Of a stretch of DNA of 64,000 nt, positions 16,820 to 47,298 are shown in pieces. Within the stretch, counting starts at the first letter, position 1. Every line of letters starts with the position of its first letter. Position numbers and translations under genes: made by a program. The notes under the pieces were generated by a model that searched no databases, was not told the origin of the DNA, and saw only the letters and a program-made list of their open reading frames with translations. This DNA is from an uncultured Candidatus Saccharibacteria bacterium (GTDB lineage: Bacteria; Patescibacteriota; Doudnabacteria; UBA920), in the NCBI GenBank assembly GCA_964505635.1, contig CAZDIP010000001.1, positions 40,174 to 104,173 of the forward strand, read 5' to 3'.

Positions 16820-16823
16820 AAAA

Positions 16824-17472: not shown

Positions 17473-17560
17473 ATAAGACCGGCCTTGGGTGCGTCAAGCA
17501 TTCCTACGGCCGGTCTTTGCTATTTTTAAAGGCTCACATGGAGTGAGCCTTTTTGACTAA
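17473..17560 (+). terminator. Two tandem intrinsic terminators (AGACCGGCC...GGCCGGTCT, then AGGCTCAC...GTGAGCCT)
   Basis: Each hairpin is followed by a T-run. Confidence 0.55.
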
Positions 17561-17583
17561 AGGAATTATCAATTGAAATCTGG

Positions 17584-17609
17584 ATCCCGCATCAAGTGCG
17601 GGATGACAG
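17584..17609 (-). terminator. Hairpin (ATCCCGCA/TGCGGGAT) downstream of the hppA 3' end. This is the probable hppA terminator.
   Basis: 8 bp perfect stem immediately 3' of the minus-strand hppA stop. Confidence 0.4.
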
Positions 17610-17620
17610 AACGTAGATAG

Positions 17621-20750: not shown

Positions 20751-20825
20751 TGGGGTGTAGCCAAGCGGTAAGGCAAACGGCTCTGAACCGTTCATTCCTA
20801 GGTTCGAATCCTAGCACCCCAGCCA
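20751..20825 (+). tRNA. tRNA-Gln (anticodon CTG)
   Basis: Acceptor TGGGGTG/CACCCCA, anticodon stem AACGG/CCGTT with loop CTCTGAA, T arm GGTTCGAATCC, and discriminator G plus CCA encoded. Confidence 0.85.
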
Positions 20826-22283: not shown

Positions 22284-25200
22284 ACGGATTTGAAGTTATT
22301 AATTAGCTCCAAATCCGAGTTAGAATTTATCCCATACAGATTATAGACAATTTTATCAATTTCAATAAGGCATCTGTTTATTTTTTCCGAAATAAGAATT
22401 AAATTATCCTTTTCTTTCAGAATTAAATTTACAGCAGTAATTTTTTTATCAGTTTCAATTTCCTTAGACGCATACATACCTATGCTGTCGTCCAATTCGG
22501 TTAAATCCTTTATAGTCTTTGGCAGTTCATTAATGTGGAGTTCAAAATTTAATAACTGTAATAATTTTTTTTCTTGATTTTCTTTATTGGTAATTTCTTC
22601 TTTTAATTGGTAATAAAGTTTTTTGAAATTATTTTTTATGTCTGAATTAATTTTGTCTAATTTTAAGGGTATGCTCCTTATTAAATCAGGGGAAAAGTTA
22701 ATGCCTCCGCCCATTCCTGAAGTAGAATGTTTGTTTTTTAGATAATAAGTTATTAGCTTTGAGTTGAGAATGCAAATCAAAGTATATGGGTCTACTGATT
22801 CTTTAAAATTGTTTATTACTGAAGTAGATTTGCCTGCAACAAACTCATTTTTATCGTCTAAAATACATTCAAAATGCCTAATCCCAGCTACTATAATTTT
22901 TACATTATCAAATTTTTGAAACCTTTTAGGGAATTGTTTTTTAAAATCTTCTTTTTGGACGACTGGGTATAAATATTTATTTTTCAGATAAGCTGTTTTT
23001 TGAATACCCCAGAGAGTATAGTATTTTTCTATTGTCCCTGTGTTAATCAATTTTAAATAGTCTGAATTGTCATTAATTTTTAAGTCCTTGATTAAATCAA
23101 TCAATTCGTAAGCTTCACCTGTGGTAAATGCTCCAAATACGTCTGCAAAATCACCAAGCGGCAAGCTCCCATTTTCTACATCCTTAAGCAAGCCCCTGTT
23201 CTCAACAAAAATGTCGCCCCAATTGTCATCCGACAATTCTTCTAGTTTATTAGATTCTTCAGAATACTCTGAACTGCTTGTAAATTTAGAAACGACAAAA
23301 TTATCAAACGACCCTTTTTTTATTGAAAAAATAATTGAGCTAAGGTTTGCATCTTCAAAAACTTTTACAGGCGAGAGGTCGGCCAGTAATACGACATTAT
23401 TTTTAATAAGCTTCCTTAATGATTTGCCATAATCCATTGAAAGCCATTTATTTGGGACAATCATACTTAAGTAGCCATTCTTTTTTAATAGCTCAAAGGA
23501 TTTTTCAATAAATGGGATATACAAGTCCCAGTTGCCTGTGGCTGATTGATACGCTTGTGAAATAAATTTTCTACCTAATGGGTCATTTTTAACCATTGAT
23601 TCTGAATCAACATACGGCGGATTTCCAACTATTACATCAAATCCGCCAGCAGTAATAATCTCTGGAAATTCTTTTGCCCAATCAAAAGCCCGTTCGCCTG
23701 CAAATTCTGGGTTATCAATAAGGCTATTACCGCACTTGATATTATTTTTTAAAGTAGTTAGCTTTTGTCCTTTTTTAGCCGATTTAAACCAAAGAGATAA
23801 TTTGGTAATTTCAACACTTTCGGGGTTTAAATCTACGCCGTAAATATTATTTTGTAGCAAAGATTTTACATAATCTTCGGTATCCCAAAGACTTGTAGCT
23901 CCGACTAAAGAGCCGATAATGTTTGAAATTCTTTTATTTTCAGCTAGCAAATAATCAAAAACTTTCACTAAAAATGCCCCAGAGCCGCAAGCAGGGTCTA
24001 ATACTTTGATATTGAGAATAAGATTCCTATATTCTGTGTATGCCTCAACCATTTTTTTATTATAGGTTTCGTCCTTTTTTATTCTGTTGCTATCAAGCTT
24101 ATGTTTAGCAAAGACATCCTGCTCCATTTTTTCTAAAAATTTTACAAGCGAATTTTTTACAATATAATCTACAATATATTCAGGAGTATAATAAACTCCT
24201 TCCTTTTTGCGCTTCGTTTCATTTTTTTTGACTTCCGGCGTTTCGCTTTCCGAATACTTTTTTAATCTTTCAAGGTCTACGATTGATTGCTCAAAAATAT
24301 GGCCGAGAATGTTTACAGACAAATCCTCTTCAAAATCAAATTTTGAAAGTTCTACAAAGTGTTTACAAATCTCATTGCTTATTTTTAAGTTGTTTATTTC
24401 ATCATCGTGTTTAAATAACTCGCCATTATAGCCGTCCGGCACGCCAAGTTTTTGGCTACCCTCATCTACTGCTTTAAAGAATTTTTTTAGTGTGTCCCAT
24501 ATCGGCTCATCCAATGCGCCTTTTTGGGCGTATTCCACAACCTCGTAAAGTTTACCTTGTGGGAGCAATCCGGCATCCTCAAAAAAACAGATAAAAACTA
24601 TACGGTCTATAATTTTTTGTGCTTTTTCAACAACGTGGTTATAAAAATTACTTCGTTGGATTTTCTCATTATTTTGTATTATGTCCTTAATTAGTTGCTC
24701 TCGTAATTGCTTGTATTCTTTATAAAATTTATTAGTTATTTTTTCCTGTTCAATCCGTATGGCAGACAATAATTTTTCAGTATTAGTTTGCCCTTTTTCA
24801 GTAATAAAATTATTCGCGCAAAATAAGAAGTAAAACTTTTTAAAATTAAAGTAGTCATCGTTAGGGTTAATCAGGTCTTTAAGCGTAAATTTTTCATAAT
24901 CCAATTGGTTATCTCTAAAAATCCGTATTTCAAAAAAATTGGTTGCAATAACAAAACCACAATCCTTATATTGAGGTTTGTATTTAAAAGCTTGTTGAAT
25001 TGGGCTTAGGTTGCCCTCACGCTGTTGAGATTTATCAAGAGATGTATTAGCATCTTTTATCTCAACTACGGCAATAACTCTTTTATCATTTTTGCTAAAA
25101 TATCCGAGAGTTGCATCGGGCATTTGACCACCACCTGTTTCAACATTGTCTTTTGGTTGGATTGAATAAATATTTGCTGGAAATGGGGTGTAGTCTAATA

Positions 25201-25381
25201 CTTTAATAAAAAAATCTGAATTAAATGCTTGCTCGCATTGCGTTTCATTTTTTTTCTGCAGCTCCTTTGTATTATAAGCGTCATACCACGATTGAATAAT
25301 CCCAAGCTTTTGCTCAAGATTAGGAATCTCAAATTTTTCAAGTTCCCCTTTAATCATTTTGTTTTTGAAAAGTCCAGCCAT
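22280..25381 (-). CDS. Type IIG restriction-modification enzyme (fused endonuclease and N6-adenine methyltransferase, MmeI-like)
   Basis: 1033 aa. N-terminal PD-(D/E)xK-like D...VVEIKD. SAM motif I VLDPACGSGAFLV and motif IV VIVGNPPY, then a large C-terminal TRD. Confidence 0.85.
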   Translation of the reverse strand: MAGLFKNKMIKGELEKFEIPNLEQKLGIIQSWYDAYNTKELQKKNETQCEQAFNSDFFIKVLDYTPFPANIYSIQPKDNVETGGGQMPDATLGYFSKNDKRVIAVVEIKDANTSLDKSQQREGNLSPIQQAFKYKPQYKDCGFVIATNFFEIRIFRDNQLDYEKFTLKDLINPNDDYFNFKKFYFLFCANNFITEKGQTNTEKLLSAIRIEQEKITNKFYKEYKQLREQLIKDIIQNNEKIQRSNFYNHVVEKAQKIIDRIVFICFFEDAGLLPQGKLYEVVEYAQKGALDEPIWDTLKKFFKAVDEGSQKLGVPDGYNGELFKHDDEINNLKISNEICKHFVELSKFDFEEDLSVNILGHIFEQSIVDLERLKKYSESETPEVKKNETKRKKEGVYYTPEYIVDYIVKNSLVKFLEKMEQDVFAKHKLDSNRIKKDETYNKKMVEAYTEYRNLILNIKVLDPACGSGAFLVKVFDYLLAENKRISNIIGSLVGATSLWDTEDYVKSLLQNNIYGVDLNPESVEITKLSLWFKSAKKGQKLTTLKNNIKCGNSLIDNPEFAGERAFDWAKEFPEIITAGGFDVIVGNPPYVDSESMVKNDPLGRKFISQAYQSATGNWDLYIPFIEKSFELLKKNGYLSMIVPNKWLSMDYGKSLRKLIKNNVVLLADLSPVKVFEDANLSSIIFSIKKGSFDNFVVSKFTSSSEYSEESNKLEELSDDNWGDIFVENRGLLKDVENGSLPLGDFADVFGAFTTGEAYELIDLIKDLKINDNSDYLKLINTGTIEKYYTLWGIQKTAYLKNKYLYPVVQKEDFKKQFPKRFQKFDNVKIIVAGIRHFECILDDKNEFVAGKSTSVINNFKESVDPYTLICILNSKLITYYLKNKHSTSGMGGGINFSPDLIRSIPLKLDKINSDIKNNFKKLYYQLKEEITNKENQEKKLLQLLNFELHINELPKTIKDLTELDDSIGMYASKEIETDKKITAVNLILKEKDNLILISEKINRCLIEIDKIVYNLYGINSNSDLELINNFKSV

Positions 25382-25382
25382 A

Positions 25383-25558
25383 TTATTTGGTTTTAGCCTT
25401 ATCTAAAAATTTATTAAATTCTATTTTATCAATTCTAAATTCCTTGCCAATTTTATAAGCCTTAAGCTGTTTAGCTTTGATTTTTCGGTATATGGTCATT
25501 ATGTTGACCTTGAGGGCTTTGGCCAGTTCTTCGGCGGTGTAAAAGGGGTCTTGTTGCA
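25383..25558 (-). CDS. Excisionase/AlpA-like HTH DNA-binding protein (58 aa). It is not in the ORF track.
   Basis: Manual translation: MQQDPFYTAEELAKALKVNIMTIYRKIKAKQLKAYKIGKEFRIDKIEFNKFLDKAKTK. This matches the Xis/HTH_17 pattern (LAxxLxVSxxTIYRxIKxGxLPAxKIGxxxRI). Confidence 0.55.
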
Positions 25559-25614
25559 TAGGGGTATTATAGTTTACTATTCTTTACATTGCAAATGACG
25601 GGCTGTGGGTAAGT

Positions 25615-26772
25615 CTAATGCAAACTCATAGGGTCAAAAGCGTCCTTTGGCGGCTCAATTTTAGCGGCCTGCGGCAAGGCATAAGGTTTAAACTGCTGTA
25701 AGGCCGTTTTTATCTGCTTAATGTATTCGTGGCAATTTTCAATGATTGCTGTTTTATTTAGCAGTTTAATTTTAACTCCTATTCTATCCCAGCTACGCTT
25801 GCTTGCCCTTTTGCCCAACATTTGGCGCAAATCTTTAACGCCGCCTTTGTCTTTGCAAGCCATTTTGAGCAGGGCTAATTGAAAAATAGTTGCGGTTCTC
25901 ATTTTAGGATTGTTTTTAAATAGCATTCTTAAAATCTTTTGTGGTGTATCTTCAAAGTCAAAAATAAATAGACTCGGTTCAATGTAAGTTTGAAAATAAT
26001 CTAGCAGTATTTTTTGGCATACTGCCAATTTAAAAATGTCGGAAAAAGTTGGATTTTGAGCAAAGCCAAGTCTTGCTAAAACAGCGTTCATTTTTGGCTT
26101 TTCAGATAGCCTAACTTCCATTCTTAAAATTTCGGGTTTTGCTTTCCTTTCCAAAAAATCAAAAAGACTTTGCCGTTGTATTTTTTGGTCTACGTCAATA
26201 GCCTTGTTTTCGCTTTTCTCTAAATCTTTCATTTTGTCATAAAAAACTAACGAATGGGACTTAGAGTAATACTGCAAGCCGTGTCCGCCATTTCTAAATG
26301 TAGTTTTTTGCAAATCCATTTTTTCGGTTAAGTTTATTTTTTCAAACTCCTTAATAATTCCCGTTGCGGAATAACCGCCAGTTATGAGTATGTTTTTTGA
26401 GGGATGAAAAGAGGCAACTATCGCCCGTCTAATAACATTTTCCGCCACGCTAACTCCCATACTGGAAACTTTTTCTTGCAGCATTGCAACTTCCAAATCA
26501 AAATCATTTTCCGTAATTTCTATCAGATTATTGTTATTGATAACTTTAGCGGCTGAAGCCTCAATCCTTAAAGTCGCCTCTGCTCCACGCTTGTAAATAA
26601 GCAGCTTGGGTTTATATTTGCCGGAGCGTTTATCTTCGGCTGTGGGGTTGTTTACATACTTGCGGTAAAAAGTCCTGTCTAAGTGCATTTTTTCTGTTGA
26701 GGGACTAAACATATCGTGCCGCACAATCCGGTAATAGCCCTTTGGAATATCTAAAATATAAGTATCTAACAT
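25615..26772 (-). CDS. Hypothetical protein, possibly a rolling-circle replication initiator (Rep_trans-like)
   Basis: 385 aa. LVFYDKMKDLEKSE resembles the Rep_trans xIYDKxxE motif. Otherwise unassigned. Confidence 0.35.
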   Translation of the reverse strand: MLDTYILDIPKGYYRIVRHDMFSPSTEKMHLDRTFYRKYVNNPTAEDKRSGKYKPKLLIYKRGAEATLRIEASAAKVINNNNLIEITENDFDLEVAMLQEKVSSMGVSVAENVIRRAIVASFHPSKNILITGGYSATGIIKEFEKINLTEKMDLQKTTFRNGGHGLQYYSKSHSLVFYDKMKDLEKSENKAIDVDQKIQRQSLFDFLERKAKPEILRMEVRLSEKPKMNAVLARLGFAQNPTFSDIFKLAVCQKILLDYFQTYIEPSLFIFDFEDTPQKILRMLFKNNPKMRTATIFQLALLKMACKDKGGVKDLRQMLGKRASKRSWDRIGVKIKLLNKTAIIENCHEYIKQIKTALQQFKPYALPQAAKIEPPKDAFDPMSLH

Positions 26773-26802
26773 TTCATTACTTCTTTAAAAATAAATAGTG
26801 CA

Positions 26803-27060
26803 TTAAAACAAGGTTTTAGCCTTATCTAAAACAGCTTTTTCTATATCTTTTGCCAGCATTTGGTTAATAGGGTGGTAGATATTTAGCCCTCGGTCGCCAA
26901 TCTTTTTAGTAGGATAAGTTAGCCGGTATCCCGTGCCGTCCAGCCGTGTGTAAACGCCGATTGAGCCAAGATACAGGCAATCGTCCAAAACAAGGCTCGC
27001 AAAGGCTACAAGGCCGCCTTGAGGTTTTACCGGTGTTATATTGACCTCGCTAATCTTCAT
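26803..27060 (-). CDS. SpoVG family protein
   Basis: MKISEVNITPVKPQGGLVAFASLVLDDCLYLGSIGVYTRLDGTGYRLTYPTKK...IYHPINQMLAKDIEKAVLDK aligns well to SpoVG. The start is trimmed from the ORF-track start at 27114 to the MKISEV Met. Confidence 0.65.
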   Translation of the reverse strand: MKISEVNITPVKPQGGLVAFASLVLDDCLYLGSIGVYTRLDGTGYRLTYPTKKIGDRGLNIYHPINQMLAKDIEKAVLDKAKTLF

Positions 27061-27211
27061 AAAGTTGCGAGTTATATTTTCTATCCATTTCAACCAGCCA
27101 GCCAAATGCGCCAATCAAATCCTGCTTGGCTTCAAAAACTTCCTGCTCGTTCAACTCCTTGCCGGATAGCTTTTCTAATATTACTTTGTCGTGGCTTGTT
27201 ATTTCGGACAT
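27050..27211 (-). CDS. Small hypothetical protein (53 aa) upstream of SpoVG
   Basis: MSEITSHDKVILEKLSGKELNEQEVFEAKQDLIGAFGWLVEMDRKYNSQLYED. It overlaps the SpoVG start by a few codons. Confidence 0.3.
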   Translation of the reverse strand: MSEITSHDKVILEKLSGKELNEQEVFEAKQDLIGAFGWLVEMDRKYNSQLYED

Positions 27212-27305
27212 AAAAAAACTGGTTATAAAACCAGTCTAAATGTTTATGCCTTTGCCGTATAAGAAATTATTGAACTACGCTAAAAGAAATTAGGAAATTA
27301 TTGAC

Positions 27306-28058
27306 CTACACTAGTTTCCTAAATCTTCTTCTTTTTTCAAGGCTAATTATTTTGCCAATTTCGTTATAGACCAGCCCATTGTTTGGGTGGCTTTTATCAA
27401 GTTCTTTTTTTAGCTCTTTGAGGCTTAAATTTTTATGTTCCCAAATGAAATCGGTAATTTTGCGGTCTAATTTTCTCTGTCTAAAATTGACCTTGTTTTC
27501 TCTGTAATCTTCTATAAAACTAACAATTATATCCCAATTTTTGTTAATGTAATCTAACACATCCCTTTTCGTGGCAAACTTATGAATGTTAATGCTCACG
27601 GGGTAGGCCGATACAAAAGTCTGCAAGCGATGATTTATCATTGGCGGCATCCACGCATCTTCAGGGTGCAGTAGCAAATCAACAGTATCTCTCATTACAG
27701 CCAAATCGCATACTTCGCCCAAGTAATCGCTTTTGCCCATAATATCTTCAAGTAATATACCGTGCATTAATTCATCATCCAGACCGTATTCTTCGGCGAT
27801 TTCATCGTATATTTTCCAATGCGGTATATAATCATCTTCGGGAAAAAGTGTCATAAATTCTTCCGACAAGGCTTTGTATTTATCCAGTATTACCTCAAAC
27901 TGCTTAACCCTCTTATCTTTATCGGAATTTTTGGTTAATTTACGGAGTTGCTTAACTTTGGCCATAAAGTGTTTGTTGCGCTTTAGGTCTGCCAAATACT
28001 GCTGCAACTTTTTATGCCCTTGAGTTTCTTTTCTTATTATTTGCATTACATTTTTCAA
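27306..28058 (-). CDS. Hypothetical protein
   Basis: 250 aa ORF with no recognisable motifs. Confidence 0.5.
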   Translation of the reverse strand: MKNVMQIIRKETQGHKKLQQYLADLKRNKHFMAKVKQLRKLTKNSDKDKRVKQFEVILDKYKALSEEFMTLFPEDDYIPHWKIYDEIAEEYGLDDELMHGILLEDIMGKSDYLGEVCDLAVMRDTVDLLLHPEDAWMPPMINHRLQTFVSAYPVSINIHKFATKRDVLDYINKNWDIIVSFIEDYRENKVNFRQRKLDRKITDFIWEHKNLSLKELKKELDKSHPNNGLVYNEIGKIISLEKRRRFRKLV

Positions 28059-28132
28059 AATTAGCTTTATTCCTTATATTTTATCAATAAGTTCTGATTT
28101 GTGGAAATTCAATAAAAAATGGTATAATATGC

Positions 28133-28771
28133 TTGCATTATTATATGGAGCAAATACCAATGATTACCTCACTTTGTAAAAAAAGTGTTCAGGCAATAAA
28201 CTATTTTGCCCGTAAAAAAGACGGCCCAATAAATAAAATGAAGGCAATTAAGCTCATTTATTTTGCCGATAGATATCATCTTAGGAAATATGGCAGACCT
28301 GTTGTTGGGGATGATTATTGGGCGATGAAATTGGGGCCGGTTGCTTCAAACACTCTAGATACAGCTAATTTAGCTAGTAATAGTCTTGAAAAAGACTGTT
28401 TTCAATATGCCAAAACATTTATTTCACATCCAAAGGGCGATATAAAAATGGAGAATATTATCTCTAAAGAAAATGTTGACTTAAGCATTTTTTCTCAAAC
28501 AGATATAGACGCATTAGAAATAGCATTTAAAGAATTTGGGGACAAAGACCAATTTGAGCTTGCAGACACTTCACATATTTATCCCGAATGGTTAAAGCAT
28601 AAACACGATATTTTGGTTGAGGGTAAAAAAAGGGTTAAAATGGACTACTTAGACTTTTTCTTAAACCCAAGAAGTGGCGGCTCTCATATTTTTGATTTAC
28701 CTGAAGAACATCTTGATTTAGCAAAAAATTCTTACTTAGAAAGCCAAGATGCCGATTTAATTTTGGGATAG
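28133..28771 (+). CDS. Panacea-domain (DUF4065, SocA-like) putative antitoxin
   Basis: KAIKLIYFADRYHLRKYGRPVVGDDYWAMKLGPVASNTLD matches the Panacea/DUF4065 core. Confidence 0.65.
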   Translation: MHYYMEQIPMITSLCKKSVQAINYFARKKDGPINKMKAIKLIYFADRYHLRKYGRPVVGDDYWAMKLGPVASNTLDTANLASNSLEKDCFQYAKTFISHPKGDIKMENIISKENVDLSIFSQTDIDALEIAFKEFGDKDQFELADTSHIYPEWLKHKHDILVEGKKRVKMDYLDFFLNPRSGGSHIFDLPEEHLDLAKNSYLESQDADLILG

Positions 28772-28782
28772 AAATACCGCCT

Positions 28783-29235
28783 ATGCAGATTAACCCTGAA
28801 ATTTCTATCCCTATTTGTATTGAACAAGGCTCAATATATCTTTACCAATTAGATACTGTGAATAAGGACGGGACGCCATATAGCGGAAACCGTTTTTTTA
28901 TAGTTCTTAACCTAAACCCTCAAACCGATGAGATTTTGATACTTTCCACAATCACAACGAAAATTGATAAACAAAAAGAATTTATTAAAAAAATCGGCGA
29001 AGACCCAAGCACATTAGTTTCTATTACTGTATCCGATTTCCCTAACCTATCTCAAGACAGTGCCGTAAATTGCAACCGTATTTACGAAACAACGCTTAAA
29101 GAGTTAGTAGAAAAGGTTAAGAATGGTGGCAAAATTTTTAATCACAATTTACCTAAAACCGTTATGAGCGCCTTGATTAGCGGAGTGTTAAAAAGTAAAC
29201 AGGTATCTCCTGAAGTCAAACAGAGATTAATTTAA
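28783..29235 (+). CDS. Hypothetical protein, a candidate cognate toxin (PanT) of the upstream Panacea antitoxin
   Basis: 150 aa. It begins 12 nt after the antitoxin stop on the same strand. No known domain recognised. Confidence 0.4.
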   Translation: MQINPEISIPICIEQGSIYLYQLDTVNKDGTPYSGNRFFIVLNLNPQTDEILILSTITTKIDKQKEFIKKIGEDPSTLVSITVSDFPNLSQDSAVNCNRIYETTLKELVEKVKNGGKIFNHNLPKTVMSALISGVLKSKQVSPEVKQRLI

Positions 29236-29312
29236 TAAGCTGGCTGCAAGTTTAACAAGCTTAAATCCTGCTCCAGTTCTGCCCAGTTCAAAGTTCTAAA
29301 CATATTCAATAA

Positions 29313-29373
29313 GGGCAGCCACGTCGCTCGCGAGCGACGTGGCCAGCCTGCCCTGTCGTTCGAGAACGACAGG
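29313..29373. repeat. Nested perfect palindromes. The first is GCCACGTCGCTCGCGAGCGACGTGGC (26 bp) enclosed by GGGCAG/CTGCCC, and the second is CCTGTCGTTCGAGAACGACAGG (22 bp).
   Basis: Read directly from the sequence. GC-rich in an AT-rich intergenic region upstream of a GIY-YIG gene. Confidence 0.8.
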
Positions 29374-29415
29374 ACCACAGAATAAGGTTGGCCATGTTTC
29401 TATCGTTCTTGTACG

Positions 29416-29676
29416 ATGTGGTATTTTTACGTTTTGCAAAGTAAAAACAAACCTGACTACTTTTATAAAGGATCAACAAACGACTTAAAGCGTCGTTTAG
29501 AGCAGCATAATAAAGGTGATGTAGATTCTACCCGCCCATACAAGCCTTTTAAGCTGGTATATTATGAGGCTTATGTTTCCGAGCATGCTGTGCGCTTTAG
29601 AGAATCATCCGTAAAAACCAGCGGGTCTGTTTCAACGCCTTTGATGAAACGAATAAAAGAAAGTTTAAAAGATTGA
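29416..29676 (+). CDS. GIY-YIG nuclease family protein (YhbQ/UPF0213-like)
   Basis: WYFYVLQSKNKPDYFYKGSTNDLKRRLEQHNKG...YKPFKLVYYEAY. Confidence 0.75.
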   Translation: MWYFYVLQSKNKPDYFYKGSTNDLKRRLEQHNKGDVDSTRPYKPFKLVYYEAYVSEHAVRFRESSVKTSGSVSTPLMKRIKESLKD

Positions 29677-29724
29677 GCAGCCATCAAGGCTTAGTATCGT
29701 AGAGGCCGAGGAGAGTTTATTGAG

Positions 29725-30240
29725 ATGAATATTCCAAAGTTTACAAAAAATCAGTGGATTGCAATTGCAGCAATAGTCGTGCCGGCTATTTTAGGATTTA
29801 TTTACTTTATTTTCCAAAAATCTAGCCTTATCCAATCAGGTAAAATTAATACAATTGGGCAATCTGGCGGTACTAATTTAGTCATAAATGATGAAGCAAC
29901 ATATACTTGGGTGAATGAAACAAATTGGAAACCAGATGGAAAACAGGTCAACTTGTTATTTATTGCAAATGGACCTGTTATACCAGTAAGTCCCTGTTTA
30001 TATATTGATTCTGATGCAGAAGTCAAAAATGCTGGTCCAATTGGCTATTCTGTGCGTTGGCAAAAAATCGATCCCCCAAAGAACTATGTTGGATGTTTTA
30101 GCGGTCTTAACAATACAACTACATTCCAAGTATTTTTTGACAAGACACCAACTAAAATTAAGGCAAGCTTGATACAGGAAGATACAGGAATTAACAATAA
30201 TAAAACAGAAACACATTTTACAGCTCCTGTATTTCAATGA
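29725..30240 (+). CDS. Hypothetical membrane-anchored protein
   Basis: 171 aa with an N-terminal TM helix. Confidence 0.45.
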   Translation: MNIPKFTKNQWIAIAAIVVPAILGFIYFIFQKSSLIQSGKINTIGQSGGTNLVINDEATYTWVNETNWKPDGKQVNLLFIANGPVIPVSPCLYIDSDAEVKNAGPIGYSVRWQKIDPPKNYVGCFSGLNNTTTFQVFFDKTPTKIKASLIQEDTGINNNKTETHFTAPVFQ

Positions 30241-30474
30241 AAACGACCCTAACCGGGGCGCATCAAAGAAAAACCTCAAAAAACCCTTACAATATCCCTA
30301 AAGGCTTGGTTCTAAACCGAGTCACACAGCTACGAAAAATCACTAATAAACATCGGTGGTTTTTTGTTGAATAGTCAGTAGCTTACTAACTTTTTTGGAT
30401 GATATATAATTTATTTATAAAGATTAACGTTCGCTAAAAAGAATTATAAAAATAATAATTCTATTAACTGAATT

Positions 30475-31003: not shown

Positions 31004-31867
31004 ATGGAATATGAGCAGAATATAAGAGTAAATAGCCGGAATTTTTCATTGTTAGAGGCGCAAAGGGGTGGCTGCGCTATTTATGCTGGCGATGACTGTT
31101 TTTTAAGAATGGGCCTGCCGCAAAAGCTTTTAAAAGATTTAAAATTGCATAAGCAAATGGAGGGATTGGGTTTTCCGGTCGCCAGGCTGTTAGAAGAGGG
31201 GAAGTTTAAAGATTTTTCGTATTTTATAGAAGAATCTTTGGGACAAGAACATTTTGGGCGAATATTTAAAAATGACACCCAAAAGTTAGGTCATGTTTCA
31301 GACGAATTTTTTGCTAAATTTCTGGATGTTTGTTTAAAATTTGCCAAGGCTCAGCTTAAAAGTGTTGTTACCGGCAAAGACTGGCCTGGGTTTGAATATG
31401 GTATTCATTTGGACATTTTAGTTCAGGAATTGCCAAAAGAAAAAAAAGCTATTTTGATTAAATACGAAGCTTGCAGGGAGAAATTAAAAGTGTTTCCTTT
31501 TGGTATTTTGCACGGCGATTTCACCCCGTTTAATATTTGTCCAAAAGGCGTAATGGATTTGGAGGATTCTTTTTTAGGTCCCGTCGCTTTTGACATAAGC
31601 TCTCTTATGAGACTTCAGGATTGGTTTCCAGACACCTCAAACGACGAGTATCATAAAGTTTATAGGTTAACGCTTGAACAAAAAAATAATTTTATTTCAG
31701 CAGTGGATGATTTGTATGCAATAAATAATTTACCCAAACCTTCTTTGTTTGAAGAAGAATTCAATTTTTTAAAGGGAGTTTGGTTTTGTGTGCGCATGCA
31801 ACATATGCCGGAATTGCAAAGTTTTAGGTATAAAAAATTGTTAAGCTTGCTTTATGCCCAAAGTTAG
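31004..31867 (+). CDS. Phosphotransferase enzyme family (APH / choline-kinase-like) protein
   Basis: Brenner motif ILHGDFTPFNI and DLEDSFLGP. The ATG at 31004 is preferred over the GTG at 30986. Confidence 0.6.
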   Translation: MEYEQNIRVNSRNFSLLEAQRGGCAIYAGDDCFLRMGLPQKLLKDLKLHKQMEGLGFPVARLLEEGKFKDFSYFIEESLGQEHFGRIFKNDTQKLGHVSDEFFAKFLDVCLKFAKAQLKSVVTGKDWPGFEYGIHLDILVQELPKEKKAILIKYEACREKLKVFPFGILHGDFTPFNICPKGVMDLEDSFLGPVAFDISSLMRLQDWFPDTSNDEYHKVYRLTLEQKNNFISAVDDLYAINNLPKPSLFEEEFNFLKGVWFCVRMQHMPELQSFRYKKLLSLLYAQS

Positions 31868-32435
31868 GCTGAAAAAAATATTCAAATGGTTTTTTATATG
31901 TTTAGCCTCGCTGTTTTTGCTAAACGCGCTTACCATCGCGTTTTTTGCCAACTTCAGGCCGCAAATTAAGCAGGCCGACGCCATAATAGTTTTGGGCGCG
32001 GCCATAAACACGCCCGCGCTTTACAACCGCAGTCTTAAGGCTTTGGAGCTTTATGAGCAAAAAAAAGCGCCTTTACTGCTTTTGTCCGGAGGAAGAATAT
32101 CGCCCAAATTTATTTCCGAGGCTACCTACATGCAAAGAACCATGCAGTCCAAAGCCACCGCCCCTTTGAATTTGGTTTTAGAGGAAGAATCTTCCAATAC
32201 CTTTGAAAATTTTAAATTTACCAAGGAAAAGTCCGGAGAGGTAAAAAGCCTAATTGTGGTAAGCGATGAGTTCCATTTGGCCAGGGCGGTTTTGGTTGCT
32301 TTAAAAAGCGGTTTTTATCCGGTTTACTGGGACGCGCCAGAGCCTAATTACTACAAGAACAAAGAGTTAACGTTTTATTATATTCGTGAATTTTTTGCCA
32401 TGTTTTCCTATTTGCCGAAATTTGTTTGGAAATAG
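31854..32435 (+). CDS. YdcF/SanA/ElyC (DUF218) family protein
   Basis: N-terminal TM, then DAIIVLGAAIN...LLLLSGG and VVSDEFHLARA. Confidence 0.65.
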   Translation: MPKVRLKKIFKWFFICLASLFLLNALTIAFFANFRPQIKQADAIIVLGAAINTPALYNRSLKALELYEQKKAPLLLLSGGRISPKFISEATYMQRTMQSKATAPLNLVLEEESSNTFENFKFTKEKSGEVKSLIVVSDEFHLARAVLVALKSGFYPVYWDAPEPNYYKNKELTFYYIREFFAMFSYLPKFVWK

Positions 32436-32440
32436 GAAAA

Positions 32441-32482
32441 GCCGGCGGTTCGCTTACGTGATGCGTGCCGCCGGCTCTTAGT
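32441..32482. terminator. Bidirectional terminator hairpin (GCCGGCGG...CCGCCGGC) between convergent ydcF-like and xylA genes
   Basis: 8 bp GC stem flanked by A/T runs on both sides. Confidence 0.5.
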
Positions 32483-32520
32483 TAGTTTGCCTATTGTTTT
32501 GCCGCTATTCGGCGGCAGAA

Positions 32521-33756
32521 CTAAATCGAGTAGGTGCGACCTTTGTGTTGGTCGATCAGGATCTGGAAGAGTCGGTGGCCGATCAATTCATGCAGCGTCA
32601 GTAGTTCCTTGTGCGCTTCCGTGATGGCCGCAACATCGCGCGGGTCAGAAACTTCGCCGCCTGCTTTCAATGCATCGGTGGCTTCGCGGATGACGGGATC
32701 TTCCAGGACTTCTCCCGCCATCTCCCAAAGAGTAATGAAGCGATCGACGGCGGTGGGGAAGCTGACAGCAAATACTCCCCAGTTGCTGGTGGTGCGCGGC
32801 GGCTTGTAGTCAAGGTTGAACGGTCCGTTGTAGCCGTGGCTGCGAAGCAGGATAAGCACATTTAGCCAATCGAGAGGATTCACCAACCCGACGGCGATGT
32901 CGACGTCGTGTTTGAGGCGATAGCCGTCATTGATGTCGAAGTGCCACAGCTTACCTGCGCTGATAGCGCGGGCAAGGGCTGCGCGCGGGGCGCCGCCCCA
33001 CATCAGTTCGTGCAAATATTCCGGGTTGAGCCCCACCATTTCGGGATGCTTCAGCAGGCCACTGCCGATGAAAGCGAGCATGGAGTCGGAAGTGGGCAGC
33101 AGAATTTCGGCCTGGGGTTCAAACGGCTTGGCCTCCATGCAGTGCTTCAGTGTGGGTTGCCCCAATTTGCCGGCGAGTTCAATATCGGCTTCGCAGGCGG
33201 CATTGAGACCCTCGGCGTACCACTGCAATGCTTGGGTCTCTTCCACGGCTCCCTGGATCTGGTAGCCGAAGGAGCCGGGCCAGTAAACAGCGAATCGCGC
33301 GCCCAACTCGTGGCCGATTTTGACAGTATTCTTGAGGCGCTCGGCGGCGTATTGGCGAACGTAGGGGGATTCCGCGGCGGGTCCGGCGGAAAACACGGCG
33401 TGGTAGAAAGTTTCGGTGGTGACCATGGAGCAGGCGAGTCCGTTGGCCTTAAGTGTGTCGCCGATGCGTCCGACGATTTCATCCTGCTTGCTGGTGAAGA
33501 GATTGCCCGCTGGGATGACGTCCGTGTCATGGGTGGCCCAGTAGCCAATGCCGATTTCGGCATAGTGGCGGATGACTTCTTCGAAGGTGACGGGCTTGCG
33601 GGTGGGGGCGTGAAAGAGAGCTTGGCCTTCATAGGCGCCGGCCCATTGGGGCCCCGTGATGAAGTACTTGCGGCGCTGGTCCGGAGAGTAAGAACCGCCG
33701 CACGAACGCACTAGGCGTTCGACCAGCGGAAGCTGGTACTCTAATTTAATAGGCAT
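32521..33756 (-). CDS. xylA: Xylose isomerase. The gene is GC-rich and its composition is foreign to this genome.
   Basis: MPIKLEYQLP...FITGPQWAGAY...WATHDTDVIP...AVYWPGSFG...MEAKPFEPQAEILLPT...LNPEYLHELMWGG...WHFDINDG...LDYKPPRT aligns motif-for-motif with class I xylose isomerases. A perfect SD AGGAGGA precedes the ATG at 33756. The ORF track extends to 33852. Confidence 0.85.
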   Translation of the reverse strand: MPIKLEYQLPLVERLVRSCGGSYSPDQRRKYFITGPQWAGAYEGQALFHAPTRKPVTFEEVIRHYAEIGIGYWATHDTDVIPAGNLFTSKQDEIVGRIGDTLKANGLACSMVTTETFYHAVFSAGPAAESPYVRQYAAERLKNTVKIGHELGARFAVYWPGSFGYQIQGAVEETQALQWYAEGLNAACEADIELAGKLGQPTLKHCMEAKPFEPQAEILLPTSDSMLAFIGSGLLKHPEMVGLNPEYLHELMWGGAPRAALARAISAGKLWHFDINDGYRLKHDVDIAVGLVNPLDWLNVLILLRSHGYNGPFNLDYKPPRTTSNWGVFAVSFPTAVDRFITLWEMAGEVLEDPVIREATDALKAGGEVSDPRDVAAITEAHKELLTLHELIGHRLFQILIDQHKGRTYSI

Positions 33757-33959
33757 AGTTTTCCTCCTATGCTTTTTGTTTTCCGTCTGTCTTCGGAAAG
33801 TAAATAAATTGCCTGAAAATAGGGAGACAGACCCCTTTAAGCAAAAAATCAAGCCAATGCTTGACCTTTTATCTTAATGGTTTTTTCGTGCCTTTGTCAA
33901 TTATGGTTTTTAATTGTGAGTAAAAATGTAGTTGACGATTTTGTATTAAAGTGTTAAAC

Positions 33960-34268
33960 TATATTTAGTTTCTCACAGAAGCGGTTTCCGCCTCTGGAGG
34001 ATAATAAATATCCAATGACAGTTGGTCCCCGCCCCTCGTTGAGAGGCGGAGTTAATTCCCATTAAGGGAGCCCACCGAGGAATCTAATTAGCGTTTAGCG
34101 CAAAAGCGCCTAGCGTTTAGAATTTCACTCGGCTTGCCCGAGTTTTTTATTAGGATATTTAACTCAAAGGTCGATTTATAGAAACTTGTAACAAGTAATT
34201 AATAACTTATAACAGATTTCGGAGCAGGTTACTTGTTATAAATTATTAGTTACAAGTTAATTCAAATT
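33960..34268 (+). promoter_or_regulatory. Candidate rplJ (L10) leader: structured 5' UTR with a terminator/attenuator hairpin at 34128-34150 and AT-rich inverted repeats before the start codon
   Basis: GCGGTTTCCGCCTC...GAGAGGCGGAG helices, the repeat TTAGCGTTTAG twice, and CTCGG-CTTGC-CCGAG followed by TTTTTTATT. Confidence 0.4.
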
Positions 34269-34784
34269 ATGTCAAAATCTAAATCTCAAAAACAGACCGA
34301 TTTGCAGGAACTGACCGACAAGGTCAAGGCTGCCAAGTCAATAGTGTTTACCGACTATCGCGGTACCACGGTTAAAGACATGGACAAATTGCGCAAAGCT
34401 TTGCGCAAAGAAAATGTTTTTTCCAAAGTCTATAAAATTACCTTGGTAAAAAAAGCTTTGGAAGCCAACCAAATTGACGCAAAAAGCATAGACTACAAAA
34501 CCCCGGTCATTTTGTCAGTTTCCCAAGACGACGAAACCACGCCGGCCCGGGTTATTAAAAATCTTTTAAAGGATTTAAAAACCGTCTCTATTATAGAGGG
34601 TGTGGTGGACGGAAAAATAATTTCCAAAAGCCAGGTTACGGCTTTGGCCGACTTGCCTTCCAAGGACCAGTTAAGGGCTCAGGTAGTAGGAACAATTAAC
34701 GCTCCTATTAGCGGCTTTGTTAACGTTTTGGCCGGCAACATTAGAGGCTTGGTAAATGTGCTTAATGCAATAGCAACCAAATAG
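34269..34784 (+). CDS. rplJ: 50S ribosomal protein L10
   Basis: MSKSKSQKQTDLQELTDKVKAAKSIVFTDYRGTTVKDMDKLRKALR... Confidence 0.9.
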   Translation: MSKSKSQKQTDLQELTDKVKAAKSIVFTDYRGTTVKDMDKLRKALRKENVFSKVYKITLVKKALEANQIDAKSIDYKTPVILSVSQDDETTPARVIKNLLKDLKTVSIIEGVVDGKIISKSQVTALADLPSKDQLRAQVVGTINAPISGFVNVLAGNIRGLVNVLNAIATK

Positions 34785-34866
34785 CAGCAAGGGTTTAGTA
34801 GCTAGTATAAAGCTTAATACTTACTTCTTGCTACTTAATACTAATTAATATTTTGAAAGGAAATTT

Positions 34867-35274
34867 ATGTCAGAAGAAAATAAAGTAGAAGTTCCGGAAA
34901 AGTTCAAAGCTTTGGTGGAACAAATTGAAAAATTATCGGTTTTGGAACTCTCCGAACTGGTAAAAGTTTTGGAAGGTAAGTTTGGCGTTTCAGCCGCTGC
35001 TCCTATGATGATGGGCGCCATGCCTGCCGGAGCTGGCGCAGCTGCCCCGGCTGCCGAAGAAAAGACCGAATTCACAGTTGAATTGGCCGATGCCGGCGCA
35101 AACAAAATAAACGTGATTAAAGTTGTTCGCGAAGTAACCGGTCTTGGACTTAAAGAAGCCAAAGATATTGTGGACGCCGCTCCAAAAGTAGTTAAAGAAA
35201 ATATGCCGAAAGCCGACGCTGAAGGCTTAAAAAAGAAATTGGAAGAAGCCGGCGCAAAAGTGAATTTAAAATAA
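34867..35274 (+). CDS. rplL: 50S ribosomal protein L7/L12
   Basis: Ala-rich hinge [24 protein letters not shown] and [24 protein letters not shown]. Confidence 0.9.
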
Positions 35275-35338: not shown

Positions 35339-35370
35339 AAACCACCCGTCAAAACGGGTGGTTTTATGTT
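35339..35370. terminator. Terminator hairpin (AACCACCCG-TCAAAA-CGGGTGGTT followed by TTATGTT) between rplL and a convergent gene
   Basis: Seen directly in the sequence. Confidence 0.55.
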
Positions 35371-36251
35371 GTCTGCTTGTCAGGTCTTGTCAAAAAATAA
35401 ACCCCGCACAGCATGGGCGCGATTGCGGCTAGCTGCCAAAATTGAGGAAGCTCTTTTATTATTAAATAGGAAAAAAGCATGGTTAAAAAAGGGCGAATGC
35501 TTGCCAGGGCATTGGCTTTGGTCACTGAAATCCGTAAAATTGATTCCAGCCAGAAAATTTTGGAAACGCCCAAAATCACCACCCCGTTAAAAATTAAAAA
35601 TAAAAGCAGGCTTAAATTTACGGCAGGCAAATTAAAACCGTGAAAAATAAAAGCCAGCAAGAAAATAAACGGCAGGGACATGGCTGTTCGCATCAGCATA
35701 AGGCTTTCACCGCTGATTTGCCGGCGGATTTTGCGCTGTAAAAAATTGCCCATGGGCGGGAGCGCGGTACAGAGCAAGATGAGCAAGTCGCCTTTATTAA
35801 AATCCAATTTTTGCATCTGCGGGTAAAAAATTAACAAAGTGCTCAGCAGCATCAATCCGGCTCCAAACAGATGCGCTTTAGTCAGGGACTCTTTTTTCCA
35901 GACATTGAAAAATAGGAAACTGAAAAAAAGTTCCATTTGCAGAATAATACCCGAGTTGTTGGCCGAAGTATAATTAAGCCCCCAAAAGTAAAGCCCATAG
36001 TAACCAACGCCAATTAATAACGCAACACCCAGCGCGTCTTTTATGATTTGGCGATTTTTCAGCTCGCCGAATTTATTTTTTAAAAATACCCAGAAAGCGA
36101 AAAATAGGGCGCTAAGCGCCAGGCTGTAAGCGAGGGAAAACAGGGGTTTTAAAATGGAAAATGAAAGCAGGGTTACAATGGGTAAAAGGCTGTTTATAAG
36201 AGATTCTGCCAAAATGGCCAGTTCGCCTTTGCGGGTTTCGGTTAAGTTCAT
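35364..36251 (-). CDS. DMT-superfamily (EamA-like) membrane transporter
   Basis: 295 aa with about 10 TM helices in two halves. Confidence 0.45.
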   Translation of the reverse strand: MNLTETRKGELAILAESLINSLLPIVTLLSFSILKPLFSLAYSLALSALFFAFWVFLKNKFGELKNRQIIKDALGVALLIGVGYYGLYFWGLNYTSANNSGIILQMELFFSFLFFNVWKKESLTKAHLFGAGLMLLSTLLIFYPQMQKLDFNKGDLLILLCTALPPMGNFLQRKIRRQISGESLMLMRTAMSLPFIFLLAFIFHGFNLPAVNLSLLLFLIFNGVVILGVSKIFWLESILRISVTKANALASIRPFLTMLFSYLIIKELPQFWQLAAIAPMLCGVYFLTRPDKQTT

Positions 36252-36320: not shown

Positions 36321-37610
36321 ATGGCAAAAGAATTAATTGATCTAAATAAAACCATAAACTTAGGGTTTTGGCAGAAGTTGCCTAAACCGGTTTTTTGCCT
36401 TGCGCCTATGGAAGAGGTAACAGACGTGGTGTTTAGGGAAATGTTTGCGAGGTATAGTGGCGGTAGAGAAAAAAATGTTCTTCGACCTAACGGAGAAGAT
36501 ATTTTTTCTGATGAAAATAAAAATATTAGATTCTCCACAAGAGCCTGTCCTGAGCCTGCCGAAGGGTCGAATATTAACATTTTAAATAACTTTGTCATGT
36601 TTACGGAATTTATAAACGTAGACGGAATACTACATCCCACGGGTTTTGAGCGTTTAAAAATTGACTTGGAATATACAGAAAACCAAAGGCCAATTGTCGT
36701 ACAAATTTGGGGCACTGACCCGGAAAAGTTTTTTAAGGCCGCGCAGTTAATGGTTAAAATGGGTTTTGATGGCATAGATATAAATATGGGTTGTCCGCAG
36801 GACAAAGAAATTGGCATTGGCGCGTGCGCAGCTTTAATACGCAACCCAAAATTAGCATCGCAAATTATTGAAGCAACCATAAAGGGTGCCCGCCTGCAGT
36901 CGCCTTCGGCTCCAGCAAATGGCGGGCAGGCCGGCAGTTTGCCGGTTTCCGTTAAAACCCGTACCGGATATTCTAAACCTGAAACCGAAGCATGGATTGC
37001 TCATTTGCTTAAGCATGGCTTAGCCGCAATAACTTTACACGCCAGGACAAAACTGGAAAAAAGTAAAGTGCCGGCGCAGTGGGAAGAAGTTAAAAAAGCG
37101 GTTGATGTCAGAAATGCTATGCAATCGCAAACCTTAATTATTGGCAATGGCGATGTAAAAAACAGAGAGGAAGGTTTAAAAAGAATAGAGGAGACCGGCT
37201 GCGACGGGGTTATGATAGCGCGTGGAGCTTTTGGGCACCCATGGATATTTAGAACTATTGAGAGGGAAAACCCAAAAGAGGGTTTTTCCCTCTCAACGTC
37301 CCAGACTTCGTCTGGGACTGCTCTCCCTTTCCAAAGTTTTAATAGCCCCGAAGTAAATTCGACGGCTATTAAGTCAACAAAAAGTTATCAACCCTCAGCA
37401 AAAGAACGCCTTATGGTAATGCTTGAGCATGCCAGGCTGTTTGACGCAAAATTAGGCAAAGAAAAATCTTTTGTGATTATGCGAAAACATTTTAAATCGT
37501 ATTTAAGCGGGTTTGACGGCGCGGCTGAGCTTAGGGCAAAGCTTCTAGAAACAAAAAACCTTCAGGAAACAGAAGGTATTTTGGCAGAGTTTTTAAAAAG
37601 TTTTAGTTAG
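36321..37610 (+). CDS. tRNA-dihydrouridine synthase (Dus family), carrying in-frame low-complexity insertions
   Basis: CLAPMEEVTD..., IDINMGCPQDK and GCDGVMIARGAFGHPWIF. Extra segments ARLQSPSAPANGGQAGSLP and ENPKEGFSLSTSQTSSGTALPFQSF correspond to DNA hairpins. Confidence 0.8.
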   Translation: MAKELIDLNKTINLGFWQKLPKPVFCLAPMEEVTDVVFREMFARYSGGREKNVLRPNGEDIFSDENKNIRFSTRACPEPAEGSNINILNNFVMFTEFINVDGILHPTGFERLKIDLEYTENQRPIVVQIWGTDPEKFFKAAQLMVKMGFDGIDINMGCPQDKEIGIGACAALIRNPKLASQIIEATIKGARLQSPSAPANGGQAGSLPVSVKTRTGYSKPETEAWIAHLLKHGLAAITLHARTKLEKSKVPAQWEEVKKAVDVRNAMQSQTLIIGNGDVKNREEGLKRIEETGCDGVMIARGAFGHPWIFRTIERENPKEGFSLSTSQTSSGTALPFQSFNSPEVNSTAIKSTKSYQPSAKERLMVMLEHARLFDAKLGKEKSFVIMRKHFKSYLSGFDGAAELRAKLLETKNLQETEGILAEFLKSFS

Positions 37611-46773: not shown

Positions 46774-46848
46774 TGGTAGCGCTACGGGGAATCGAACCCC
46801 GATTTGGTGGATGAGAACCACCTGTCCTAACCATTAGACGATAGCGCC
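46774..46848 (-). tRNA. tRNA-Glu (anticodon CTC)
   Basis: rc: GGCGCTA-TC-GTCTAATGGTTAGGACA-GGTGG-TTCTCAT-CCACC-AAAT-CGGGGTTCGATTCCCCG-TAGCGCT-A-CCA. Confidence 0.85.
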
Positions 46849-46976
46849 AAATTCCTAACAATTCTAGCAGTTATGAAAAAAATACTCAATAAACGAAAAT
46901 AAGTTGTTTTTTTAAAAAGCCTATTGCTCAAGCAAAGGAAAATGGAAAACTTTTTTGTTTAAAACAAAAGCAAATT

Positions 46977-47005
46977 TTGACAAAAGCTTAAAAATCGGCT
47001 ATACT
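46977..47005 (+). promoter_or_regulatory. Near-consensus sigma70 promoter (TTGACA-N17-TATACT) driving the RT leader
   Basis: TTGACA at 46977-46982, a 17 nt spacer and TATACT at 47000-47005. Confidence 0.55.
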
Positions 47006-47011
47006 GTGGTC

Positions 47012-47298
47012 ATCGGGGTGGAAACCGAATAGGTTTTAACACCGACCAAAGGAATTTAACCTTTATAACAAATCGGAGAGCCAGAGCGCCCTAGCCATAA
47101 GGCAGACAGATATGAGCAGATATGCTATAATAAAGTTAGAGACCTTCCGCTTTGAGACAAACATTAAAATGTTCGCCGACAAAGTGGGAAATGCCTTTAA
47201 AAGAATACCAAGTAAAGTTGGAGCTATTAAAGAGCACTCCATTTGGAAGCTGATTAGGCGCTTGAGTTATGTAATCAGCCTCCTCCCAAATTAAAAAT
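47012..47298 (+). ncRNA. Candidate RT-associated noncoding RNA / structured leader (~285 nt) between the promoter and the RT start codon
   Basis: No SD before the RT. Contains a 12 bp hairpin GGAAGCTGATTA...TAATCAGCCTCC at 47245-47283, ending 15 nt before the RT ATG. Only a weak 60 aa ORF lies inside. Confidence 0.35.

Follow-up and report, generated by a model that had tools for sequence, protein, structure and literature searches.

Probable horizontal acquisition of a xylose-isomerase-like gene from Bryobacterales by a Candidatus Doudnabacteria genome

The acquisition of genes from outside the candidate phyla radiation (CPR) has been documented in general for CPR bacteria, with relatively few cases in three other CPR lineages, and the hosts of most environmental CPR bacteria are unknown (PMC8406219). 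In those cases, as in the one described here, a non-CPR gene in a CPR genome adds a metabolic step; in contrast to them, the present event was resolved to the base, its donor order was identified, and the same gene family entered a second Doudnabacteria-like genome independently. In this study, a 64,000-nucleotide (nt) stretch of contig CAZDIP010000001.1 (hereafter, the window) was analyzed around a gene that encodes a xylose-isomerase-like (XI-like) TIM-barrel protein of 411 amino acids (aa). The original prediction had described this gene as a GC-rich xylA with a perfect Shine-Dalgarno (SD) sequence in an AT-rich genome, either recently acquired from a high-GC donor or placed there by a mis-joined contig; the gene lies on the minus strand. 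The results reported below make it very probable that the gene is a single-gene horizontal acquisition of a class-I-like XI-family enzyme, passed from the order Bryobacterales to Candidatus Doudnabacteria. The literature search found nothing on Doudnabacteria with xylose isomerase or with Acidobacteria, and the identifiers of the Sequence Read Archive (SRA) runs used below were uncited.

The closest relatives of the XI-like protein belong to a 412-aa family of Acidobacteriota named only as TIM barrel proteins (MBL8177971.1, MBS1829581.1 and MFN7938117.1), which shares 77-89% aa identity with it over the full length and falls in the same 90% cluster. The composition, the codon usage and all invariant residues are common to this family and the window copy. 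The window copy differs from the family in having lost one codon near the N-terminus, in the stronger divergence of residues 2-15, and in being found in a CPR genome of 0.39 GC with an SD sequence and a hairpin terminator, and without the GCTATGAT motif and the DUF2905 gene that accompany the acidobacterial copies. The class I D-xylose (glucose) isomerases of Streptomyces rubiginosus (1OAD/1MNZ) and Thermus thermophilus (1BXB) share with the XI-like protein the (beta/alpha)8 barrel and C-terminal helical arm, with TM scores of 0.70-0.75 over about 395 columns, as well as the metal ligands of 1OAD, its H54, D57 and K183, and the pocket residues. In contrast to these enzymes, to which it is 28-32% identical, the window protein is longer by about 22 residues at the N-terminus, falls short of the TIGR02631 cut-off and has no xyl operon context, and its activity is predicted. 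The similarity noted earlier to class I enzymes of Streptomyces and Thermus thus held only at the level of the fold (about 30% identity), and the actinobacterial or Thermus donor that it implied gave way to an acidobacterial one, where the closest kin were found.

The XI-like gene forms a compositional island with sharp borders. The GC content of its open reading frame (ORF) is 0.589, and 0.713 at third codon positions (GC3), against 0.392 in the rest of the window (0.396 for the window as a whole) and a host GC3 of about 0.3-0.5, in agreement with the estimates made by eye of about 60 percent for the gene and the high 30s percent for its flanks. Windows of 1.2 kb outside the island have a mean GC of 0.392 (standard deviation [sd] 0.036, maximum 0.518), and the island peaks at 0.594. 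In a sliding scan, the island was by far the strongest tetranucleotide outlier of the 64 kb. The 4-mer profile of the ORF correlated with that of the host at r = -0.145, against a mean of 0.899 (sd 0.066) for host segments of the same length (z = -15.9), and with that of the flanks of a Bryobacteraceae locus (L004) at r = 0.84. Relative synonymous codon usage behaved alike, with a correlation of -0.02 for host genes and of 0.76 for acidobacterial orthologs. The windowed GC, codon usage and tetranucleotide checks that the original prediction had proposed therefore all marked the island as foreign to its host, and the candidate donor was matched by the same measures.

The upper border of the gene had been drawn at 33860, following an upstream TTG ORF of 443 aa. 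The start at the ATG at 33756 is favored by the 412-aa orthologs, by the SD sequence and by the gene calls of the Logan contigs. In the public NCBI record, the gene is likewise called as a 443-aa product starting at TTG 33852, and the resulting 32-aa N-terminal extension is probably an annotation artefact. Remodelling of the N-terminus, or a junction within the coding sequence, was considered and rejected; the N-terminus is variable across the family, and the GC content of the first 30 nt (0.40) lies within the donor range of 0.30-0.60.

The phylogenetic position of the gene agrees with its composition. The best 120 protein matches were 76-89% identical, and all of those with an organism name came from Acidobacteriota (Bryobacterales, Bryobacteraceae and Solibacter). 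Genomic copies were taken from the best 80 of 436 relatives, and weaker CPR copies may exist beyond these; 79 gene sequences, the window's own included, were recovered from the 80 genome loci, and the 78 other loci were analyzed. Flank GC exceeded 0.5 in all 78 except one (L073, discussed below), and the 80 best metagenome loci added no further low-GC carrier, their flank GC being at least 0.53 throughout. In the neighbor-joining tree, the XI-like gene was nested within the acidobacterial copies as sister to a Bryobacterales clade (L004-L008) in 100 of 100 bootstraps. The nearest relatives reached 89% aa identity, and the best DNA identity was 85.9%, to Bryobacteraceae STL-ACI3. Moreover, DNA similarity to the donor was limited to the coding sequence (32530-33704). 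These comparisons identified the order Bryobacterales of the Acidobacteriota as the donor lineage, with the coding sequence as the only donor-derived part of the locus. Vertical inheritance was rejected in view of the acidobacterial composition of the gene, its wide distribution in Acidobacteriota and its nesting within that phylum, and a transfer from CPR to Acidobacteria was rejected on the same composition, distribution and nesting. One of the loci (L020) is labelled 'Bordetella', has a GC content of 0.65 and carries a gene nested among those of Acidobacteria; its label is doubtful.

The surroundings of the acidobacterial genes are of another kind. The acidobacterial orthologs (L004-L083) carry a GCTATGAT(A/G) motif 12-19 nt upstream of the ATG and run into a downstream DUF2905 gene. 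This motif resembles a -10 promoter element, which would give a very short or absent leader. As to the age of the event, the GC3 of the window gene lies within the acidobacterial range (mean 0.75, sd 0.09), and the polarised GC-to-AT excess was non-significant also when pooled with L073 (p = 0.063). Amelioration was rejected as a feature of this gene, and the data fit a fairly recent transfer from an unsampled Bryobacterales lineage.

On the recipient side, the homologs of the L10 protein that flanks the island are named Candidatus Doudnabacteria or Patescibacteria group, which places the host as a Candidatus Doudnabacteria (CPR) genome. The XI-like gene lies in a slot between a DUF218 gene and the rplJ-rplL genes, the latter with about 73% nt identity to three relatives (L084, L085 and L086). 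In two of them, L085 (from GCA_016788665.1) and L086 (from GCA_040384245.1), the DUF218 gene is also found upstream of rplJ, and the order of DUF218, slot, rplJ-rplL, Dus, a gene of about 674 aa, a 186-aa gene and LexA is common to these and the window. The slot holds unrelated minus-strand ORFs of 137 aa and 115 aa in L085 and L086, with no XI-like gene, and other small ORFs in L084; it measures 1,833 bp in the window versus 931 and 732 bp in L085 and L086. Host-like DNA ends at the stop codon of the DUF218 gene (32435); it is found again from about 34005, within the rplJ leader. Because the relatives hold different ORFs between DUF218 and rplJ, comparison of these loci indicates that the slot is naturally variable. 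The original prediction had named the presence of xylA at this place in close relatives, together with uniform coverage and read pairs, as the refuting finding, and neither L085 nor L086 has the gene there. The further claim that the gene breaks an rplKA-rplJL context proved wrong: since relatives that lack the XI-like gene also show DUF218, a small ORF and rplJ, the missing rplKA upstream of rplJ is, by this comparison, ancestral and not due to the insertion.

A sharp step in composition that falls exactly at the borders of one gene is also what an assembly chimera would leave, with an acidobacterial fragment wrongly stitched into a CPR contig, and the Logan contig of run SRR16481182 does stop within the downstream hairpin, at 32471. 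However, the join was reproduced in three independent per-run assemblies of the Logan collection. The contig of SRR16481182 equals window positions 32471-33943 at 100% and carries the exact XI-like protein. That of SRR16481186 equals positions 32603-34925 at 100% and joins the XI-like gene to rplJ and rplL. The contig of a third run, SRR11567540, equals positions 32050-34610 (2,561 bp) with a single mismatch, G33494C, which changes Thr88 to Ser at a variable position; it covers the 3' half of the DUF218 gene, the hairpin, the XI-like gene, its upstream region, the rplJ leader and rplJ. Thus, both junctions were recovered in one run and the right one additionally in the two others. In addition, the 328,776-bp NCBI contig carries the XI-like gene together with the host L10, pyrophosphatase, EamA and GH1 genes. 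A mis-join is less tenable still because it would also need to recreate the ancestral order of DUF218 and rplJ, which the host DNA on either side of the gene restores, and the flanks of the gene are not acidobacterial, being without the downstream DUF2905 gene and the upstream GCTATGAT motif. At the assembly level, the join of the XI-like gene to host DNA is real, and a chimera retains almost no probability.

The proposed sequence of events concerns a single gene. A coding sequence would have been taken from a Bryobacterales bacterium and placed in the variable slot that separates DUF218 from the rplJ leader; its AGGAGG sequence, terminator hairpin and promoter-like site would have been added or have evolved on the recipient side, or have come from an unknown intermediate, because none of them was found beside the acidobacterial orthologs. 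Several observations weigh against this reconstruction. No mobility gene, target-site duplication or terminal repeat marks the entry at the slot, whose borders showed only short imperfect repeats of chance quality, and the nearest recombinase gene (Table 1) is outside the slot. The GC-to-AT excess on the recipient branch was non-significant (64:11 versus 152:46, p = 0.135), and the nearest known relative, at 86% DNA identity and a synonymous divergence (dS) of about 0.7, means that the actual donor is unsampled and the date of the transfer uncertain. The support for the join consists of assembled contigs and not of read coverage or read pairs, and the three Logan runs may come from the same site or population. 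Finally, the scan for promoters performed at chance level (2 sites versus 1.8 in shuffled sequences), and the expression of the gene, like the use of its SD sequence in an SD-poor host, is a prediction. Even so, the recent acquisition from a high-GC donor that had been predicted is supported by the composition, by the Bryobacterales nesting in all bootstraps, by the absence from the slot in two relatives and by little or no amelioration.

The flanking signals of the XI-like gene were then considered. The original prediction gave the SD sequence as AGGAGGA-N7-ATG; a perfect SD sequence is indeed present, and its spacing is AGGAGG-N6-ATG, that is, AGGAGGA-N5-ATG. The AGGAGG sits in the loop of a small hairpin (GCAUAG/CUAUGC), with the start codon within the 3' arm. 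There are 14 AGGAGG sites in the window, 4 of which are 4-10 nt before a possible start codon. The host is SD-poor, as had been claimed: 40 of 49 genes are without an SD-like stretch of at least 4 nt, which is the level of random positions (84%), and no SD-like 4-mer was found at rplJ, hisS, mnmA, lexA or the reverse transcriptase gene. The idea that the SD sequence is itself a sign of transfer did not hold, however. Because the acidobacterial orthologs have no SD sequence at all, the AGGAGG is, by this comparison, not a donor signature.

Two further observations concern SD sequences at other places. Apart from the one at the XI-like gene, a single AGGAGG stands at SD distance from an ATG-start ORF of some size (region 4253-4871); it precedes ORF 4266-4871 (201 aa, GC 0.51), which has a signal-peptide-like N-terminus and no match in Pfam or NCBIfam. 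In the relative L084, the ATG of an ORF in the slot (671-949 of that locus) is preceded by GGGAGG at a distance of 4 nt. A strong SD sequence in SD-poor genomes such as these may be a sign of an atypical or foreign gene.

Downstream of the XI-like gene, the predicted GC-rich hairpin was found, followed by a U-run. It folds at -42.4 kcal/mol (z = -5.64), none of 200 shuffled sequences folded as well, and it directly abuts the stop codon of the DUF218 gene; it is likely the intrinsic terminator of the XI-like gene, judging by its fold and position. The hairpin had no similarity to the fetched donor or host-relative loci, and a blastn search with the upstream region gave no match among the fetched loci. 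The leader of the gene is modestly structured (fold z = -2.1). A riboswitch or other known RNA in this leader was rejected, Rfam giving only the sub-threshold L10 leader of rplJ. That rplJ leader, the presence of which beside the gene had been predicted, matched weakly, below the gathering score; it ends in a terminator-like hairpin and T-run (34127-34143), and its positions 34005-34082 are 75% identical to L085.

The non-coding flanks match neither the donors nor the relatives of the host, and the SD sequence is foreign both to the donor orthologs and to the habit of the host, which is what would be expected if the gene had come indirectly, by way of a phage, a plasmid or another bacterium that supplied SD sequence, promoter and terminator together as one expression cassette. 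At a distance of 7-12 kb there is a probable integrated element that includes a serine recombinase and a Phage_CRI-like gene, and the other AGGAGG at SD distance also precedes a GC-elevated ORF. In contrast, the upstream flank has a host-like GC content (0.34), the slot is free of mobile-element genes and repeats, and no homolog of the flanks was found in any fetched locus; such an indirect route is considered unlikely.

The protein belongs to the xylose isomerase-like TIM barrel superfamily, PF01261 matching residues 66-321 with 49.2 bits against a gathering cut-off of 31.1. The only solved relatives were xylose isomerases, with E-values of 1e-44 to 1e-47 for class I over residues 34-365. All 17 positions compared with the S. 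rubiginosus enzyme (catalytic, metal-binding and pocket residues) were conserved, with roles that we take to be those established for that enzyme. Residues H76, D79, E208, K210 and E246 of the XI-like protein correspond to H54, D57, E181, K183 and E217 of 1OAD, and residues H249, D274, D284, D286 and D316 to H220, D245, D255, D257 and D287, so that the ligands of both metals and the catalytic His, Asp and Lys are present; the seven further conserved S. rubiginosus residues are W16, F26, M88, T90, F94, W137 and K289. An AlphaFold2 model (pLDDT 69, pTM 0.75) showed the TIM barrel with the C-terminal helical arm, and the top 50 Foldseek matches to it were all class I xylose isomerases, aligned over the full length with TM scores of 0.70-0.75 and 28-32% identity. 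The ratio of nonsynonymous to synonymous substitution rates (dN/dS) against the nearest ortholog, L004, was about 0.1. On the basis of the alignment and the model, the XI-like protein is most likely a functional counterpart of the class I xylose/glucose isomerases, interconverting aldoses and ketoses through a metal-mediated hydride shift. Expressed as a two-metal aldose-ketose isomerase, it would widen the sugar scavenging of a metabolically reduced cell.

The label xylA is a narrower claim. A genuine D-xylose isomerase (EC 5.3.1.5), by which the cell could catabolise xylose, would account for the conservation of the metal ligands, of the catalytic His/Asp/Lys and of the pocket residues W16, F26, M88, T90, F94 and W137, as well as for the full-length match to the class I fold, and members of the family are annotated as xylose isomerase by JGI. 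Against this, all four NCBIfam xylose isomerase models score the protein far under their cut-offs: TIGR02631 (xylA_Arthro) gave 186.9 bits, where the curated equivalog cut-off is 447, and the class II models gave 60.8 versus 533 and 54.6 versus 459. The identity to characterised enzymes is about 30%, and the NCBI family name is only 'TIM barrel protein'. Moreover, neither xylB nor a xylose transporter adjoins the gene in the scanned ORFs of the window or in the acidobacterial loci. The search covered the neighbors in 158 acidobacterial loci and, against Pfam, the 30 larger ORFs of the 64-kb window, and no linkage to xylB, xylose transport or XylR was found; the xylB and xylR genes that the original prediction had suggested looking for, and FGGY kinases in general, are thus absent among those 30 ORFs. 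The recurrent neighbors in the acidobacterial loci are DUF2905 (45 of 158), signal peptidase (32 of 158) and acetyl-CoA synthetase (18 of 158). The sister clade has the order GntR, DHDPS, MR_MLE, XI-like gene, DUF2905 and LepB, with the GntR gene set apart from the rest; the DHDPS-MR_MLE linkage, which the XI-like gene there follows, is confined to that clade. An assignment of function from the donor context was therefore rejected, as no conserved sugar operon was found among the 158 loci. Neither the PDB nor the literature yielded a characterised member of this acidobacterial clade. The xylA label thus remained unproven at the curated thresholds, and a true xylose isomerase serving xylose catabolism is possible but the less probable outcome; the broader reading, an isomerase of the class I type, is preferred. 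The window also holds a GH1 glycosidase, a second GH-like protein, two EamA transporters and a short ROK kinase.

The streamlining of CPR genomes, the relatives that do without the gene and the lack of partner pathway genes nearby would also suit a neutral passenger that is unused by the cell and heading to decay. Nevertheless, the ORF is intact and of full length with all invariant family residues kept, it has its own SD sequence, promoter-like site and terminator, and the three runs that contain it show a single substitution between them, at a variable position. In addition, an intact and independently acquired copy occurs in a second Doudnabacteria-like genome. A decaying passenger is thus very unlikely, and a functional isomerase is the reading retained here.

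The second genome is represented by locus L073 (contig CAYYWQ010000001.1, 1.21 Mb; positions 5995-7236), in which DNA of about 0.42 GC surrounds a 0.62-GC copy of the XI-like family; this copy has a ComF-like gene on one side and a sigma factor on the other, and is set among housekeeping genes. The relatives of its RecG with an organism name are Doudnabacteria or Patescibacteria, and the NCBI label of the contig, 'Candidatus Saccharibacteria', looks wrong by this comparison. The L073 copy is 74% identical to the window copy and at most 80.6% to any acidobacterial copy. Because its best matches lie in another acidobacterial clade and it never groups with the window copy in trees, the two Doudnabacteria-like genomes acquired the XI-like family independently, at different sites. 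This independent second entry points to a use for the enzyme in these reduced cells and to closely shared habitats of Doudnabacteria and Acidobacteria. A stronger version, in which Doudnabacteria repeatedly capture this isomerase (at least two events, from different acidobacterial clades and at different sites) while living as episymbionts on Bryobacterales-type cells, is quite unlikely on present data. The two nearest acidobacterial copies in Logan, checked for a sample common to donor and recipient, came from unrelated runs, SRR13871842 and SRR7402492, and were uninformative on this point. If the stronger version were true, the XI-like gene would record, at the molecular level, a CPR-host pairing not known otherwise, and, as a corollary, strong SD sequences in these SD-poor genomes would mark recently imported GC-rich genes and may be needed to express them.

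The event is a well-supported and ordinary kind of horizontal gene transfer (HGT) with two small twists, namely that the same donor phylum supplied this family more than once and that the SD sequence is the habit of neither donor nor host. A base-resolved capture between phyla, with the donor order identified, can serve as a validated positive control for HGT and contamination screens of metagenome-assembled genomes (MAGs) of CPR bacteria, and it shows that a single gene standing out in a MAG as a sharp GC island does not have to be a binning or assembly error. The recurrence provides a lead towards the hosts or partners of Doudnabacteria, and the SD sequence, used by neither donors nor host, raises the question of how SD-poor bacteria translate foreign genes. 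Furthermore, a widespread acidobacterial clade of class-I-like xylose isomerases is hereby flagged for enzymology.

Table 1. Window coordinates of the XI-like gene, its flanking signals, the slot anchors and the genes of the low-GC stretch
Feature	Position	Strand	Basis or remark
tRNA	20751-20822		overlapped by the large serine recombinase gene
Large serine recombinase gene	20811-22283	-	
MmeI/Eco57I-type restriction-modification gene	22280-25381		
Phage_CRI-like replication protein	25615-26772		
SocA/Panacea antitoxin-like gene	28133-28771		
GIY-YIG gene	29416-29676		
Host DUF218 (YdcF-like) gene, left slot anchor	31854-32435	+	Pfam PF02698, 84 bits
GC-rich hairpin (GCCGGCGG...CCGCCGGC) followed by UUUUCC on the strand of the XI-like gene	32437-32479	-	RNA fold, inverted repeat I3
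XI-like coding sequence (xylose-isomerase-like TIM-barrel protein, 411 aa)	32521-33756	-	PF01261, donor-like DNA, GC, class I xylose isomerase residues and fold
AT-rich upstream region and 5' leader, GC 0.34	33757-33931	-	neither donor-like nor relative-like
SD sequence AGGAGG, 6 nt 5' of the ATG	33763-33768	-	sequence, fold
Candidate sigma-70-like promoter TTGACA-18-TAAGAT of the XI-like gene	33871-33900	-	consensus scan, 10/12
Candidate divergent promoter TTGACG-17-TAAACT of rplJ-rplL	33932-33960	+	consensus scan, 9/12, TG extension
rplJ leader, weak L10_leader match	33994-34158	+	Rfam RF00557, 23.5 bits, gathering score 44
Host rplJ (34269-34784) and rplL (34867-35274), right slot anchor	34269-35274	+	L10 homologs Doudnabacteria/Patescibacteria

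Several minor observations were made elsewhere in the window. An EamA-family transporter gene (35364-36251, minus strand) lies between rplL and Dus and is not at that position in L085 and L086, so this position would be another variable slot beside the rplJL operon. The Dus gene encodes 429 aa in the window versus 354 aa in L085, with the alignment broken at about 36449-36590, which suggests a lineage-specific insertion in the protein. A second, milder 4-mer outlier (16600-19624; r of 0.38-0.67 to the host, GC about 0.50) holds a membrane-bound pyrophosphatase gene (17621-19624, minus strand; NF001951, 1059 bits) and an ORF of GC 0.55 with no assignment (16894-17445). A low-GC stretch (0.30-0.36) at 20751-30300, 2-12 kb from the XI-like gene, contains recombinase, restriction-modification and phage-like genes and is probably an integrated mobile element or defence island. 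Finally, in the region 46777-48609, a tRNA gene (46777-46848) and the reverse transcriptase gene (RVT_1; 47299-48609) are separated by about 450 bp.

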